Source of the DNA: Dictyostelium discoideum
Lineage: Eukaryota
Direction: 5' to 3'
DNA: 64,000 nt
NCBI GenBank assembly: GCA_000004695.1
Contig: CM000153.2
Span: forward strand, 5,152,001 to 5,216,000
A program made the position numbers and the translations under genes. Under the pieces are notes generated by a model. The model saw only the letters and a program-made list of their open reading frames with translations. It was not told the DNA's origin and ran no database searches. This document shows, piece after piece, positions 2,310 to 17,135 of the stretch (position 1 is its first letter; each line of letters opens with the position of its first letter).

Positions 2310-3960
2310 TTAATTTAAATCAAAATATTTTCTAAAAAGAGGACAATATTTACTTTCTACAGTAACAAATTCTTTAAAGAATAAACTCTTTGAGTCTTTA
2401 GTTGTACAAGTTTGAGATTTTAATAATAAGAATTGATCAAAGAGTTTATCGATAGTTTCTTTGTCAGAATCTTTATAGTCATTGTAAAGACCACCATATT
2501 GACCCTCCTCTTTGGAATCCTCAAACAAGATGACGAAATAAGAGGAAAGATGATTTTGAATGGAAAACATGAAATGTTGTTGACATTCTTTTGGTGCCAA
2601 TGTCATCAATTGTAAATAGAATTCCATTGGTGTTAAGATATCATCCAAATCACCACTTTCTAAACAATAGATAACATCATTCGAGATTGCTCTTTCATGG
2701 CATGATAAAAGTTTGATACACTGTTCTTTACTCTCAACGGATGGTAATGATTGATAGATTTCAAATAAACCTTGAGTCTCCTCCAATGTAAGATGTTCCT
2801 CCTTCCATGTATTTAAATATTCAACCAAGATTGAATAAAACTTTTCAATGAATAATTTTGAATCGGTATTCTTTAAAATTGAATGGAAAACAGAAATGAA
2901 TTCACTATTAATCTCACCTTCCTCTTCATCAACGCCATCATCACCACCACCACCATTTACCAATATGAATCTATTCAAATATTCAATAATCTTTTCAACA
3001 TTATCTCTTATAAATAATCCAACAACTTTATTCTCACGTAATAAAAATGTTGATTCATTCTTTTCTAATGATTCACAACCAGCATTACTTTATTTTTTTG
3101 GAAAAAAAAAAATAAAAAATTAATAAATTTTGTTTTTTTTTTTTTTTTTTTTTAATATATTAATTAATATTTTACATACGTTATTTTTTCAATATTTTTT
3201 AAATAATATTGTTCTTGATCAGAGTCAGTTAAATAACAACAAATACTCATGAAATAAGTTGCTCTTTGTTTTTTATCAGCCAACATTGGTAATTGATATT
3301 CAAGATTTTTTAAAAGATGTGAAGATAATTCCTGTTTCTTTTCAGAGGTTAATAATTGTTGACCATTGAAAATACCCAATGATAATGAAACTAAACCTGA
3401 TAATGACTCTTTGGTTTTTTGCATTAATTCAATTGATGAAACTTTTAATAATAAATCAAATGGTGTTTTCTCTGATGATGCTTGATCAATGAATGCTTGA
3501 TCATTCTCTTCAATTTGTGTACCTAATACTAAACCAACTCTTGATAAAAAGAATTTAATTGTTTTAATTGCAATATGGCCATCTCCTGAATCTAAATCTT
3601 TATATAAATCCAAATACTAATTTTTTAAAAATAAAAAAAATAAAAAAAAAAAAAAAAAAATTAGTAAATAAATAAAAAAATAAAAAAAAATTAATAAAAA
3701 AAAAAAAAAAATTAAAATTATATAATTACATTAACTAAAATTTCAAATAATTCGAATCTCCAATTTATAATAATATCTAAAGATGAAAGTGCTTGAATGG
3801 CAAAGAATTTAACTTGATCTGATGATTCTAATGTAATTAAGGTTTCATATAATTCTATTACTTTTTTATCATCTTTATTTTCCATATAATATTTAATAAA
3901 TAAACAAGTTGATAATGCTCTTAAAATGTAATTATTACTTTTAACCCATTCTTCTAATTC

Positions 3961-4010
<50 letters not shown>

Positions 4011-4466
4011 CGTTTTATAAAATTGAAAAAAGAGAAGTCAGCGACTGGCAAATTTTTTTTTTTTATTTTTTTTTTTTATTTCCACTCCGACATTTTTTTT
4101 TAATTTTTTTTTAATTTTTTTTTTTTATTTTTGGCACACGATAAAAATAGATAAAAATAAATCCAAAAAAAAAAAAATAATAAAAAATAATAATGACTTA
4201 CGATTAATTTTTAATTTTTTTGAGATCATAAAAATGACAACAGAATTAATTGTACTTAAAATTTGACATGATTTTAATGTAGTGGTTGTAATGAATTCTT
4301 CAACTGCTTTTTTAAAATCTTCAACACTCCATTTTGAACATTGTTTTAATAAATCTTCTGAAACCATTTCTTCTAAATCGCTATCACTTTTATTTACACT
4401 TGATAATATAAAAACATTATCTGATTTTGCAATACCTTCATTTAAAAATTTTATTATTTCTTGCAT
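2310..4466 (-). CDS. Hypothetical conserved protein with a helical-repeat look, ~570 aa. Four exons on the minus strand: 4466..4202, 3959..3730, 3616..3180, 3087..2310.
   Basis: ORF segments MQEIIKFLNEGIAK..., (Q)LEEWVKSNNYILRALSTCL..., YLDLYKDLDSGDGH... and NAGCESLEKNESTFLLRENKVVGLF...YFDLN* are joined by GTAAGT/GTAATT/GTATGT donors and AT-rich-tract AG acceptors with consistent phases 1/0/2. I cannot assign a function from the sequence. Confidence 0.45.
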
Positions 4467-4715
4467 TTTTTATTTATTTTTATTATTATTATTTAAATTG
4501 TTTGTGTGTTTTGTGTGTGCGTGTGTGTTTATGTGTGAGAAAAAAATCCTATTTATTTATTTATATATATGTACAAATTTTTTTTTTTTTTTATATTTTA
4601 TTATTTTTTTATTTTTATTTTTGCTTTTTTTTTTTTTTTCTATCCTCTCAAAATAATTTTATTTTTCATGAAAAAAAAAAAAAAATAAAAAAATAAAAAT
4701 AAAAAAAAAACAATT

Positions 4716-4747
<32 letters not shown>

Positions 4748-5951
4748 TCAATAAAAAATCAGATAAAATTGGTTTTTTTTCTTTTTTTTTTTTTTATTTT
4801 TCTTTTTTTTTTTAAATAAAAACCTTTTTTTTTTTTTTTTTTTTTGTGCAATAATATTTTTAGAAATTAAAAATATCTTTCGCGCTGAACATTTGTCCAT
4901 ATTATAATAATAAACCAAACTTCACTCCGATTATATTGAAAATTAAAAAAAAAAAAAAAAAAAAAAAATAGAAAAATTCAAATTAATTTCGAATTGATTG
5001 GTGCAAGGTATTTTCTTGGCATTATCACAAGTTCAAGCCGATAGTATGAAATAAAAAAAAAATAAAAAAAAAAAAAAAAAAAAAATAAATAAATAAATAA
5101 GTAAATAAATAAATAAAAAATAAACAAATAAAAAAAATAAAAATTTAAAACTAAACAAATAAAGTTTAAAAAAAAAAAAAAAAACAATAAATTATTTTAT
5201 CATTATAATAAAATTATTTGAAAGTTTTTAAACTAAAAATAAACCAAATTCTTTTTTTTGATTTTTTTTTTTTTTTTTAAAAAAATTGATTAATTAAATA
5301 ATTCTAGTAAAGGAATAATAAAATAAAAAGTTAATTTGGAAATGATTAAAATAATCATAAGATTAAAATAATTATTATTCACAGAATATTATGTATTTTT
5401 TTTTTTTTTTTTTTTTAATAATTTAAAAATAGTTTTTGGTTAAAAAAAAAAGTGATAATGAATAACACTGAAATATTAATTATTTTTTTTTTTATTATTT
5501 TGAACTTTAACAATTTAATCTATTCCAGAAACACCGAAACGCTTTGAATTAAAAAAAGACCTTTCAGACTTTTTGACATTAATAGTTTTCTTAAAAATAA
5601 AGATTACTTTTTTTTTTTTTGATTTTTTAAATTTCGTTTTTTTATTTTCACTTTTTTTTTTTTAGTCAATTTTTTTTTTTTTTTTTTTTTTTCGAACATT
5701 TTTTTTTGTTATAAAAAAAAAAAAAATAAAAATAAAATAAAAAAAAAAAAATTTTAAATATATATACTTACATTAACTAAAATTTTGAATAGTTCAAATG
5801 AAACATATTTACATTTTTTTATTACAAACTACTGAAAATTAAAATAATCACTCAAATTATTTTTTTTTTTTTTTTTATTTTTTTGAACCAATTTCCCTAC
5901 TCAATTTTTTGAAATAATTTATTTTTTCAACTTTTTTTTTAGTTACAGCCA

Positions 5952-5986
<35 letters not shown>

Positions 5987-6044
5987 CAATAATAATGATT
6001 CAAAAAATATAAAAAAATTAAAATTAAAATTATTAAATAAAATA

Positions 6045-11167
<5,123 letters not shown>

Positions 11168-12927: not shown

Positions 12928-13213
12928 TTTTTTAATTTATTTTACACTAAAAAAATAAATAATTGAAAAAAAAAAATTAAAAATATAAATGTTAAAAAAA
13001 AAAAAAAAAAAAAAGATATTTTAGAAAAATCACTGGTATCACGTATTTTTTTGGGTTGAAAATTTTGGAAATTTAGGTATGAAAAATTCCGATAAAAAAA
13101 AAAAAAAAAAAATTGTTTAGTGGAGATTTTTTTTTTTTTTTTTTTCATAACTTTATGCCATCCTGTTATATTTTATTTAAATTAAGAATTTTTTTTTTTT
13201 TGGCCATTATTAG

Positions 13214-13285
13214 TTTTTTTTGAATTGGATAGTTGTAGTCTGCTTCTCTTTGAGATTTTTTTTTTTTTTTTACAGACCTTGAATT
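13214..13285 (-). mobile_element. Solo, heavily 5'-truncated 3'-end fragment of the same retroelement family, with its poly(A) on the minus strand.
   Basis: The minus strand reads AAGGTCTGT-A16-ATCTCAAAGAGAAGCAGACTACAACTATCCAATTC-A8. This parallels the 3' terminus at 13471-13570, which reads AAAGACCCTGT-A15-...ATCTCAAGGAGAAGCAAATAATAATTGCGTTATCCAATTC-A~30. Confidence 0.35.
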
Positions 13286-13454
13286 AAAAGTGTTTGGAAA
13301 GGGTTTGAAAAGGGATTATCAATTTTTATTTCTTTTTTAATAGAATAATAGAAATAGTGTTTATTAAAAAAAATAATAAAAATAATTATTTTATTTTTAA
13401 ACAATAATTTGGATACTTCAGTGTGCACCATAGTTTAATTAAAAATAATCGATT

Positions 13455-13489
<35 letters not shown>

Positions 13490-13558
13490 AATTGGATAAC
13501 GCAATTATTATTTGCTTCTCCTTGAGATGCTAGATCTCATTTTATTTTTTTTTTTTTT

Positions 13559-13759
13559 TTACAGGGTCTTTTTGATTAAAACATCTTTTTTGTCCAAACT
13601 TTTTTCTAAATCTTTTTTTATTTTATCGTCTGGTTCGTGATTGATGTTTATGACGTATTTGAATTGTTTTTTTTTTAATTGAGTTTTATCCACAATTTCG
13701 CTTATTTTTTGTAGGCATTTGTGTTGCTTAATATTTGTGGTGTTGTTTGTGATTTTCAT
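13559..13759 (-). pseudogene. Truncated copy (first 66 codons) of the retroelement ORF1. It is fused directly to a 3'-terminal motif plus poly(A), so it looks like an internally deleted element copy.
   Basis: The peptide MKITNNTTNIKQHKCLQKISEIVDKTQLKKKQFKYVININHEPDDKIKKDLEKSLDKKDVLIK is identical to the N-terminus of ORF 14703..16037. Homology stops at 13562, where the 3'-end motif AAAGACCCTGT-A15 begins. Confidence 0.55.
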
Positions 13760-13800
13760 TTTATTTTCTTTCTATCTTTTTTATTTTTCTGATTAACTTG

Positions 13801-13842
<42 letters not shown>

Positions 13843-13855
13843 TTATAGAAAGTAC

Positions 13856-14319
13856 TGAGTGAATTATTGTATTTTTTGAGATGTTTAGGAAGTTCTATTG
13901 CGGGTGTTGATGATGATTTGTGACACCCCTTGTCCTGTTTTATCAATTGGTGCGTGGTGTGTTATTTTGTTTTTATATTGTTGATTTATTGAGTAAATTT
14001 TATTTGTTTTTATATTTGTTTCAGTTAGAAGTGCTGCGTCCAGCTTGTTGTTGTCTAAAACGGTGTTTATTATGCTGGCAGATTGGATGGTATTGGATCC
14101 TTGGACGTTCCAAACACCTATTCTTATTGTGTTTTTCTTTATAGTTTTATTTGGGGTAGATTTTTATCTACCTTTTGAAGTTTCTGGTTTATTTTGTCTT
14201 CTAACTGATCTTTACTTTGTTCATTGTGTTGTTGGTCTTGTGTGTTTGTGGGGTTTTTTGATTTATTGATTTGTTTTAGAATTTCCTTGTTGAAGTTGTC
14301 TATATCTTCATCCATTTTT
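13856..14319 (-). repeat. Second copy of the ORF1 C-terminal part plus ~290 bp of 3' region of the retroelement, truncated by the assembly gap.
   Basis: Near-identity of 13856-14299 with 14420-14880, with identical spurious ORFs on both strands in the track. It ends in GTACTTTCTATAAAT + A38 (plus 13841-13803, reverse complement). Confidence 0.7.
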
Positions 14320-14419
14320 NNNNNNNNNNNNNNNNNNNNNNNNNNNNNNNNNNNNNNNNNNNNNNNNNNNNNNNNNNNNNNNNNNNNNNNNNNNNNNNNN
14401 NNNNNNNNNNNNNNNNNNN
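14320..14419. other. Assembly gap (100 N) inside the retroelement tandem array.
   Basis: Run of exactly 100 N. Identical sequence on both flanks implies a collapsed or unresolved repeat. Confidence 0.95.
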
Positions 14420-14702
14420 TGAGTGAATTATTGTATTTTTTGAGATGTTTAGGAAGTTCTATTGCGGGTGTTGATGATGATTTGTGACACCCCTTGTCCT
14501 GTTTTATCAATTGGTGCGTGGTGTGTTATTTTGTTTTTATATTGTTGATTTATTGAGTAAATTTTATTTGTTTTTATATTTGTTTCAGTTAGAAGTGCTG
14601 CGTCCAGCTTGTTGTTGTCTAAAACGGTGTTTATTATGCTGGCAGATTGGATGGTATTGGATCCTTGGACGTTCCAAACACCTATTCTTATTGTGTTTTT
14701 CT

Positions 14703-16037
14703 TTATAGTTTTATTTGGGGTAGATTTTTATCTACCTTTTGAAGTTTCTGGTTTATTTTGTCTTCTAACTGATCTTTACTTTGTTCATTGTGTTGTTGGT
14801 CTTGTGTGTTTGTGGGGTTTTTTGATTTATTGATTTGTTTTAGAATTTCCTTGTTGAAGTTGTCTATATCTTCATCCATTTTTGTTTTTATGCTTTTTTG
14901 TCCATATTCACCCAATTTTGGTTTGACTGGTGTTTTGTTGGTCTTGTTTGTTTTGTCTTGTTGTTTCTTTTTTGGTGTGTTTAACAATTTACTTGGTGAA
15001 TCGATAATTTTCGATGGTGTACCATAGGTTGGGCTGAAACTCATGATATGTTTTATTGGAGAGGAGAAGAACCATTGATTTGAAGGGATTGAAAGTGGGA
15101 ATTCTATTTTTCTTATTGCATCAGTGTTTGGGCTGGTGAAGTCGAAGATATCATTTGCCTCTCTAAGTTTTTCTTCCGTTGTTAGTCCCTTTGTTTCGCC
15201 GTGTTGTTTTATTGGTGTATTGTATGGAGATGGTGGTTCGATAGGTTTTTCTGATTTTGTTTTAATTTCTTGATTGTTTATCGATTGTGTATTGATCTCA
15301 TTCTCTATTCTTGTTAGTTCATCTACGTTTTCTAGTGATGCTTCTATTACCTTTTGAGCTGTATCATCTAGGGCCATAAATGTTTTATCATTAGATGAGG
15401 ATGTGATTGGTGGGATAATGATTGTTCTTTTTCCTTGTTTTGGTATTTGTTCTGATGTAGATTGTGGTTGTTGTTCATCTGATTGTTTTTTATTTTTGTT
15501 TTCTTCTTGATTTTCTGGTAATGAGGTTTGATCTCTCCATCCTTTGTTGGAGTGTCCAATTAATGTTAGATTGTCTAGTTCAATGATAGTGTCAAATTCT
15601 TCTACGACTCTTTTCACTGTTTTGATAATTAGAGTTTCGCCTTTAATTTCTGATTTAATTAGTTTACATCCTTCATTTTCTATTACCCATTCTATTTCTG
15701 TGAGTGATTTATACCAATCAAAATCTGTATACATATTTTTTGGTCTTATAGTGGTTATAAATTGTCCTTTTAATTCTGCATCAAACATATTTACAAAATA
15801 GATTACTGTACTAATACTGTCTGTGAGAATTTTGAATGTATTATTACTTTTGATTAAAACATCTTTTTTGTCCAAACTTTTTTCTAAATCTTTTTTTATT
15901 TTATCGTCTGGTTCGTGATTGATGTTTATGACGTATTTGAATTGTTTTTTTTTTAATTGAGTTTTATCCACAATTTCGCTTATTTTTTGTAGGCATTTGT
16001 GTTGCTTAATATTTGTGGTGTTGTTTGTGATTTTCAT
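14703..16037 (-). CDS. Retroelement ORF1-like protein of 444 aa, no RT domain. It is the main ORF of the TRE5-like unit nearest the tRNA.
   Basis: Uninterrupted ORF MKITNNTTNIKQHKCLQKISEIVDK...LPQIKL* inside the repeated element. Its N-terminus is duplicated at 13559..13759 and its C-terminus at 14139..14299. ~51 kDa is consistent with a TRE5-A ORF1-sized product, a figure I recall from memory and have not checked. Confidence 0.45.
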   Translation of the reverse strand: MKITNNTTNIKQHKCLQKISEIVDKTQLKKKQFKYVININHEPDDKIKKDLEKSLDKKDVLIKSNNTFKILTDSISTVIYFVNMFDAELKGQFITTIRPKNMYTDFDWYKSLTEIEWVIENEGCKLIKSEIKGETLIIKTVKRVVEEFDTIIELDNLTLIGHSNKGWRDQTSLPENQEENKNKKQSDEQQPQSTSEQIPKQGKRTIIIPPITSSSNDKTFMALDDTAQKVIEASLENVDELTRIENEINTQSINNQEIKTKSEKPIEPPSPYNTPIKQHGETKGLTTEEKLREANDIFDFTSPNTDAIRKIEFPLSIPSNQWFFSSPIKHIMSFSPTYGTPSKIIDSPSKLLNTPKKKQQDKTNKTNKTPVKPKLGEYGQKSIKTKMDEDIDNFNKEILKQINKSKNPTNTQDQQHNEQSKDQLEDKINQKLQKVDKNLPQIKL

Positions 16038-16112
16038 TTTATTTTCTTTCTATCTTTTTTATTTTTCTTTAAAAAGTTAAAAATCTGGAAATTTTCTAAT
16101 TAACTTGGTTCC

Positions 16113-16156
<44 letters not shown>

Positions 16157-16272
16157 TCTTTTTTATATGAAAAATGAAATAATCAAAAAAAGAGATTGTT
16201 GTTGTTGTTTGTTTTTTTCGATCTCCAAAATAATCGATTTATTTTGCTATTAAAATTTTTATTTCATCCAAA

Positions 16273-16355
16273 GCAAGGGTAGGAAAGTCTGGTTAAATCC
16301 GTGTGACTTAAGATCTCATCCATTCGGTTCGCGAGTTCGAATCTCGCCTCTTGCA
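16273..16355 (+). tRNA. tRNA-Leu, anticodon UAA, type II tRNA with a long variable arm.
   Basis: The acceptor stem GCAAGGG pairs with CTCTTGC, with discriminator A. The anticodon loop is CTTAAGA, so the anticodon is TAA. A long variable arm TCCATTCGGTTC is present. The T-arm is GCGAG-TTCGAAT-CTCGC, and its internal B box reads GAGTTCGAATCTC. Confidence 0.85.
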
Positions 16356-16385
16356 ATGTTTTCTTAATTTCAATTATTCGATTAT

Positions 16386-16398
16386 TGGTTCAATTCTT
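16386..16398 (+). promoter_or_regulatory. Candidate external B box (exB-like motif TGGTTCAATTCTT) ~31 bp downstream of the tRNA.
   Basis: 8 of 11 positions match the B-box consensus GGTTCGAATCC. Dictyostelium tRNA genes are known to carry downstream exB boxes. This is only a resemblance. Confidence 0.3.
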
Positions 16399-16402
16399 TA
16401 AT

Positions 16403-16656
16403 GAAACAATATACAAATTAAATAACAGAGACCAATTAATAATCAACTTCAACACATCATGGCATAACCCGAACACTCCAAACCCAATTCCATTATAATA
16501 AAAAAAAAAAAAAAAAAAAAAAACAAGTAGTAGTAATCATAATATAACCAAAAATATCAACATATAACAATATAAAAATTTAAAAATTTAAAAATCTAAA
16601 AATTTAAAAATGTAATAAAATATAACAATACACCGCTTTTAGGTAAAAAAAAAAAA
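16403..16656 (+). mobile_element. ~254-bp poly(A)-terminated insertion flanked by a perfect 16-bp target-site duplication GGTTCAATTCTTTAAT (16387-16402 and 16657-16672). Candidate 5'-truncated TRE3-type (tRNA-downstream) retroelement 3' fragment.
   Basis: Perfect 16-bp direct repeats. The insert ends in A12 immediately before the second repeat copy and also has an internal A23 run at 16498-16520. The insert is A/C-rich on the plus strand. The insertion point is ~45 bp past the tRNA 3' end. Family identity is inferred from position. Confidence 0.4.
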
Positions 16657-17135
16657 GGTTCAATTCTTTAATTTTAAATCCAAGGTTTCATAGGTTTTTG
16701 TTACATAGTTGCACATGTTAACCACTATGCTGTGCCCATTTTTATGAGCTTAAAGATTACCCGTAGTCTAGAATCAAATCAAAAAAACCGCCAAAACCAA
16801 CCAAACACCCAAAAAAAAAAACTGGCGAACCTATTGGATGGATACAAAATTAACATAAAAAAAAATTCTCCCTCAAACAAATCAATAGAACCCGACTAAA
16901 CCACGATTAGCATTATTTTTAAAAATATAATCCATAAATAAACTTTTAGCTATTGTAAATTTATTCACTTAAATGGATAAACTCTAAAAAAAAAAATTAA
17001 AAAATAAAAGATAAAAAATTTGTATTACTTGAATTAATACTGTTACAGAAGAAATGTTTTATTAATTTTTATTTTTTATTTATTTTTATTTTTTTAATAA
17101 TTTTTTATCTTTTTATTATTTTTATAATTATTTCA

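Follow-up and report, generated by a model that had tools for sequence, protein, structure and literature searches.

Why does one 16-bp sequence occur twice just downstream of a tRNA gene of Dictyostelium discoideum AX4, and what is the DNA that separates the two copies? The locus lies in the window analysed here, a 64-kb stretch of ~20% G+C that carries the genes DDB_G0286993 and DDB_G0286983 and, according to both ARAGORN and Rfam, a single tRNA gene: a tRNA-Leu(UAA) on the plus strand at 16273-16355 (Rfam tRNA, 49.1 bits), with an internal B box, GTTCGAATC, located by motif scan at 16335-16343 (+) and a TTTT run at 16359-16362 (+) as its Pol III terminator. A tRNA-like stretch on the minus strand at ~16700-16745 was rejected for want of ARAGORN or Rfam support. 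Published surveys place a TRE element at 61% of D. discoideum tRNA genes, and TRE5 and TRE3 together at 13%. We find at this locus a feature of a known kind, an ordinary and well-understood insertion of a well-catalogued repeat family, and set out below the evidence for its identity, its age and its mode of insertion.

The 16-bp target-site duplication and its empty site

A search for GGTTCAATTCTTTAAT that tolerated up to two mismatches returned exactly two copies in the 64-kb window, against 0.52 expected by chance at that looseness, and both copies are exact: a proximal one at 16387-16402 and a distal one at 16657-16672, each on the plus strand. Between them lie 254 bp (16403-16656) consisting of 58% A, 15% C and 5% G and closing with A12 at the 3' end, precisely the arrangement of an A/C-rich insert between direct repeats that an initial annotation of this DNA had described. 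That annotation was also right to place the insert downstream of the tRNA gene, but the distance it gave, 45 bp, needs correcting: the left 16-mer begins 31 nt past the final base of tRNA-Leu(UAA), and the insert itself begins at +48. The tRNA gene and its terminator are intact, as is the proximal external B box (exB) discussed below.

The initial annotation had itself named the possibility that the 16-mer is a common simple repeat. In a genome of ~78% A+T with many low-complexity repeats, such a pair might arise by chance around native intergenic DNA, and the window does hold 1,211 direct 16-mer pairs less than 1 kb apart. However, every other 16-bp direct pair of high complexity in the window sits inside a longer repeat (the TRE5-A duplication at an assembly gap, and repeat-containing genes), so the GGTTCAATTCTTTAAT pair, exact and not of low complexity, stands isolated and is no simple repeat. 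Moreover, the interior is a repeated element present at at least six other tRNA loci. The closely related D. cf. discoideum supplies the unoccupied state directly. The histidine-phosphatase gene that neighbours the locus has an 88%-identical orthologue there, and contig L023 carries the orthologous tRNA-Leu(UAA) followed by one GGTTCGATTCTTTAGT at +36 with no insert, that is, an empty site. With a single 16-mer and no interior in the sister species, the repeat in D. discoideum is shown to be a true target-site duplication; the chance-repeat reading is refuted by this empty site together with the five-copy alignment described below, and we give it virtually no weight.

The same comparison dates the event. 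A second D. discoideum assembly (GCA_054883475.1, L001) contains the same 254-bp insert and both 16-mers. Because D. cf. discoideum has the empty site while both D. discoideum assemblies have the insert, the insertion is younger than the split from D. cf. discoideum and common to both D. discoideum assemblies. In the Logan data, contigs with the neighbouring gene ended before the tRNA gene.

A second length difference between the species lies a little further downstream. Both D. discoideum assemblies have a 214-bp segment with TG...CA ends (16699-16912 in the window) that D. cf. discoideum lacks, and removal of the segment restores collinearity between the two species (55 versus 54 nt). BLASTN, BLASTX and Rfam searches found no match for it among the fetched loci, TRE proteins and Rfam families. 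It is close in length to the 208-bp LTR reported for Dd_Skipper-2 (DGLT-P), which targets the 3' side of tRNA genes.

The insert and its parent element

The first 96 nt of the insert (16403-16498, +) translate to ETIYKLNNRDQLIINFNTSWHNPNTPNPIPL*, which translation, BLAST and alignment assign to the last 31 codons and TAA stop of a TRE3 ORF2, probably that of TRE3-C; the same C-terminus is found in P0015 (DDB_G0269266), P0131 and P0126. The 3' UTR follows (16499-16644, +), with a layout like that of the longer sibling copies at loci L013, L014, L024 and L025. It comprises an internal A24 run (16500-16523, +), an 8-bp AAAAATNT tandem array detected by TRF (16550-16630, +) and a terminal motif, ACACCGCTTTTAGGT, delimited by alignment (16630-16644, +), after which comes the poly(A) tail of A12 (16645-16656, +). 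The internal A24 run and the tandem array are parts of the insert that the initial annotation had not described. Sibling copies carry poly(A) tails of A11-A35 at the same point. At the 5' junction the insert shares a 3-nt AAT microhomology with the target at 16400-16402, and its BLAST alignment to the L014 copy begins at 16400. Lacking a promoter and any complete ORF, the 254-bp fragment is, on the face of its sequence, inert.

The parent was reached through the far 3' end of the insert. We collected TRE-rich loci through exact matches to the ORF1 of the neighbouring TRE5-A and compared the insert by BLASTN with TRE5-A and with these loci (~155 kb); the first pass gave poly(A) noise only. With A-runs masked, the sole match was a 16-nt terminal match in L010, where ACACCGCTTTTAGGT-A11 lies between 13-bp duplications, GAAGTTCGGTTTT, 55 nt downstream of a tRNA-Ser gene, and this match led to the element family. 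A homology search with the TRE3-like ORF2 of L010 recovered several D. discoideum ORF2 families, P0015 (DDB_G0269266) among them. The AX4 proteins P0009 and P0015 were not placed on contigs, and members from another D. discoideum assembly were used instead.

Among these, L014 contains a full-length copy at 2919-7597, 4,679 bp long including an A35 tail and free of terminal repeats, which encodes a 236-aa ORF1 and an APE/RT ORF2 in two pieces of 663 and 472 aa (Pfam Exo_endo_phos and RVT_1). A tRNA-Ser(UGA) gene of the same orientation ends 42 nt upstream of this copy, which has the duplication ACAGTTCCGGTCTG on both flanks. The window insert corresponds to positions 4400-4658 of this copy at 98.8% identity over all 254 bp. 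It aligns over its full length with all four longer copies, the terminal ...CACCGCTTTTAGGT-poly(A) being common to all; in the five-copy alignment it shows no private substitutions, and homology extends from the duplication boundary to the poly(A) tail. These results, together with the ORF2 C-terminus, bear out the proposal of the initial annotation that the insert represents the 3' end of a retroelement of the TRE3 type.

The internal A24 resembles a second poly(A) tail, and the insert could on this account be two poly(A) retro-insertions or a template-switch chimera, in which a 96-nt piece plus A24 was joined to a 121-nt piece plus A12. However, all four longer copies (L013, L014, L024 and L025) also contain this run, as A26-A28 in the corresponding position right behind the ORF2 stop, so the A-run belongs to the 3' UTR and marks no second insertion; there is, moreover, a single pair of target duplications. 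The five-copy alignment thus refutes a chimera of two poly(A) RNAs, which we regard as extremely improbable.

By its length and integration behaviour the parent element is a TRE3, in agreement with every TRE3 property that we tested. Like its siblings, the insert ends in an oligo- or poly(A) stretch (here A12) without LTR. It lies 3' of a tRNA gene, and the sibling copies begin +20 to +76 after tRNA-Ser, tRNA-Lys and tRNA-Thr genes. TRE3 elements are inserted in the orientation of the tRNA gene (PMC5911963); insert and tRNA are both on the plus strand here, and orientation likewise agrees at six of six sibling loci. The published distance range for TRE3 in general is 40-150 bp downstream of tRNA genes, a span that includes the +48 of the window insert, and reviews give ~100 bp as typical, whereas the window copy and its siblings lie closer, at +20 to +76. 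The parent ORF2 has the APE, RT and zinc-finger domains of an ORF2 akin to those of other TREs, with a C-terminal CxxC...H...C motif visible in its sequence.

The assignment to a subfamily is most probably TRE3-C, judging from length, full-length ORFs and ORF2 distances. The copy in L014, at 4,679 bp, is ~4.7 kb long and so falls short of TRE3-A and TRE3-B: the consensus sequences in the literature measure 5,229 bp (TRE3-A), 5,279 bp (TRE3-B) and 4,734 bp (TRE3-C), with 29 copies of TRE3-C (2/29 full length) 14-305 bp 3' of tRNA genes, and for TRE3-D a partial consensus only, of 1,559 bp (PMC5006619 Table 1). The database names of the relevant proteins all read 'hypothetical protein', which leaves some room for another subfamily, such as TRE3-D or a variant TRE3-A or TRE3-B, with the same mechanism under a different name. 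We consider this unlikely. The L014 copy differs by ~55 bp from the TRE3-C consensus and is 550-600 bp below TRE3-A and TRE3-B, TRE3-D has no full-length consensus, and the two more abundant TRE3-like ORF2 families, P0001 and P0008/P0009, whose 3' ends are different, fit TRE3-A and TRE3-B. In addition, the parent ORF2 (P0131, 1,149 aa; P0015) is, over ~1,000 aa, 32% identical to the TRE5-A ORF2 and ~33% identical to each of the two other TRE3-like ORF2 families; this equal distance agrees with the published remark that the phylogenetic grouping of TRE3-C is ambiguous.

The element behind the insert resembles TRE3-C in its poly(A) end, the absence of an LTR, two ORFs with APE and RT in ORF2 (L014), target duplications of variable length, a size of 4.68 kb against 4,734 bp and a distance within 14-305 bp; the window copy differs in being the last 254 nt only, and hence inert. 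TRE3-A (Tdd-3) and TRE3-B share the integration niche and orientation of the TRE3-C-type copies, and in L010, L011 and L024 copies of the two other TRE3-like families are found at the same sites, in tandem with TRE3-C-type tails. By contrast, their ORF2 sequences are distant from that of the parent, their 3' ends read ...CAATAGTTTATTTATATC-An and ...CTTGTTAATCCAATATT-An, and their lengths are 5.2-5.3 kb. Taken together, we hold it very likely that the 254-bp insert is a dead-on-arrival, 5'-truncated TRE3, most probably TRE3-C, and thus a non-LTR retrotransposon of the L1 clade, inserted by target-primed reverse transcription in the orientation of tRNA-Leu(UAA).

The external B box and the choice of target

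The duplicated target contains a B-box-like motif, and the initial annotation had suggested that a putative exB was copied along with it. In D. discoideum the B-box core is GTTCRAnYC, and an exB lies ~41 bp downstream of 66% of tRNA genes (PMC3159450). The motif GTTCAATTC inside the proximal 16-mer (16388-16396, +) matches this core and lies at +33 from the tRNA 3' end, within the expected tens of base pairs; the D. cf. discoideum orthologue has an exB, GTTCGATTC, at +37. The suggestion is thus upheld by core match, position and conservation in the sister species. In our sample, the motif class occurs at +30 to +50 at 10 of 17 distinct tRNA loci (background, 0.005 per 56-nt window), with a modal position of +30 to +32 and a normal range of +30 to +42 across the 17 loci. 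The window's proximal exB agrees with the published type in core, position and conservation, and the locus departs from the usual arrangement in having two copies through the target duplication, the distal one (16658-16666, +, found by motif scan and matching the same core) lying ~300 bp from the tRNA gene, at about +303.

Whether the element seeks out this box is a separate question. TRE3-C could recognise an exB bound by TFIIIC and cut on either side of it, which would make the duplication of the box a designed outcome, and among the six informative TRE3-C-type duplications three do include either an exB or a degenerate motif resembling one (GTTCAATTC for the window, GTTCCGGTC for L014, GTTCGGTTT for L010). 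However, we found no B-box-like sequence in the duplications of L011 (GTATTACCAAAA), L013 (TAATCAAAAAATAG) and L025 (ATCAAGATATTGTT), which lie at +34 to +67, and in L025 one 14-bp target was reused at least four times. With six informative duplications the comparison is a small one. Because exB boxes normally occur at +30 to +42, any insertion in the integration window overlaps them, and exB-directed cleavage is judged very unlikely in view of sibling copies at the same distance without exB. The sampled TRE3-C-type target duplications fall at +29 to +67 from the tRNA 3' end, and copies insert at ~+30 to +65 with or without an exB, which argues that the copying of the box is probably a positional coincidence and not exB-directed targeting. 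As a mildly useful point, the stretch in which TRE3-C-type copies integrate (+30 to +65) is also where exB boxes usually lie, so that target duplications may copy them.

The distal copy at 16658-16666, now an orphan B box detached from the tRNA gene, could conceivably still be bound by TFIIIC and provide an additional TFIIIC site or a new TRE landing pad, a possibility that we consider quite doubtful; if it held, TRE3 insertions would spread B boxes.

The insertion is well accommodated by standard target-primed reverse transcription of the L1 type in tRNA-Leu(UAA) orientation. The site would be chosen by distance from the tRNA gene bound by Pol III and TFIIIC, not by exB sequence, and the copied exB would be a by-product. 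The element's endonuclease would cut the bottom strand at 16386/16387, a point ~51 bp beyond the internal B box and at ~+31 relative to the end of the tRNA gene; copying of the RNA, primed on the poly(A) tail, would stop, be interrupted or switch after ~240 nt. A second nick, in the top strand 16 bp away, would then allow the 5' end to be joined through the AAT microhomology, and fill-in of the stagger would yield the 16-bp duplication. The junctions, the poly(A) tail, the target duplication and the empty site are read directly, and it is from the junctions that we infer the nick positions and the joining by microhomology. Mammalian 5'-truncated L1 (LINE-1) insertions look much the same: they too end in poly(A), have lost their 5' part, lie between duplications of 12-16 bp and show microhomology where the 5' end was joined. 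L1, however, uses a TTTT/AA cleavage consensus, whereas the TRE3 target is set by position relative to a Pol III gene, and the inferred bottom-strand nick sites of the TRE3-C-type copies have no common sequence.

The upstream TRE5-A and other insertions at tRNA genes

The other flank of the same tRNA gene is occupied by a TRE5-A copy on the minus strand (13461-16226), recognised by ORF1 identity and including a 100-N gap. Its 444-aa ORF1 (14703-16037, -) is identical in sequence at at least nine other TRE5-A loci, and equals the copies in L003 and L004, where it is followed by a 1,047-aa RVT_1 ORF2. A string check finds the flanking duplication AAAATAATCGATTTATTTT at 13442-13460 and 16227-16245. 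The 5' end of the element faces tRNA-Leu(UAA) head to head, 46 nt from the first tRNA base; TRE5-A ORF1, the head-to-head arrangement and a position ~50 bp upstream are together those of a TRE5-A. With TRE3 downstream, the proposal that one tRNA gene was struck from both sides by two retroelement classes is confirmed.

The TRE5-A site is exactly empty in the D. discoideum assembly L001 (8449-8500). Because the element is absent there with an exact empty site, its insertion is recent and strain-polymorphic, and it is younger than the TRE3 insertion. A single tRNA gene thus has a young polymorphic TRE5-A on its upstream side and, downstream, the tail of an older, 5'-truncated TRE3, with an empty site in the sister species. 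The locus carries little weight beyond annotation, as a clean, fully readable textbook case in the AX4 reference genome.

Two further observations concern the TRE5-A and its surroundings. The 100-N assembly gap (14321-14420) is surrounded by a perfect duplication (13876-14852) with 564-bp spacing that covers the 3' region of ORF1, probably an assembly artefact. Beyond the element, at ~13200-13275 (also at ~8660-8730 of L001), both assemblies contain a second sequence resembling a TRE5-A 3' end, with C-module-like ...GAATTGGATAGTTGTAGTCTGCTTCTCTTTGAGA..., apparently what is left of an earlier TRE5 insertion.

Among the sibling loci, L025 (GCA_054883475.1, JBTAPE010000033.1) holds at 2507-3471, downstream of a tRNA-Ser(AGA), a 13/14-bp target, (A)TCAAGATATTGTT, five times. 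The target copies separate five TRE3-C-type tails, one of 732 bp and four ultra-short ones that each consist of 14-17 nt (...ACCGCTTTTAGGT) and A11-A33, so that exactly the same nick sites were reused at least four times. Single ultra-short TRE3-C-type insertions of 15-17 nt plus poly(A) occur, between duplications of their own, at L010:10447-10480 on the minus strand (GAAGTTCGGTTTT) and at L011:10157-10218 (GTATTACCAAAA). Tail-only scars of at most 17 nt plus poly(A) account for six of the 11 sampled TRE3-C-type events, counting L025, L010 and L011 together. An RNA hairpin was rejected as the cause of the ultra-short truncations, the predicted fold of the 3' UTR being no stabler than that of shuffled sequence (z = -0.12). 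Very short tail-only copies seem common, and repeat annotation may miss them; if such scars are unannotated, published counts of TRE3-hit tRNA genes are too low.

A full-length copy of another TRE3-like family in L011 starts, at 4829-4842, with an exB-like GGTTCAAATCCCAG that is missing in the adjacent sister copy, and which may be a 5' transduction of the exB of its source locus. Finally, L013 contains at 4027-4124 an intron-containing tRNA-Thr(CGU), missed by default ARAGORN and found with the intron option only, which is the target of a 2.4-kb TRE3-C-type copy.
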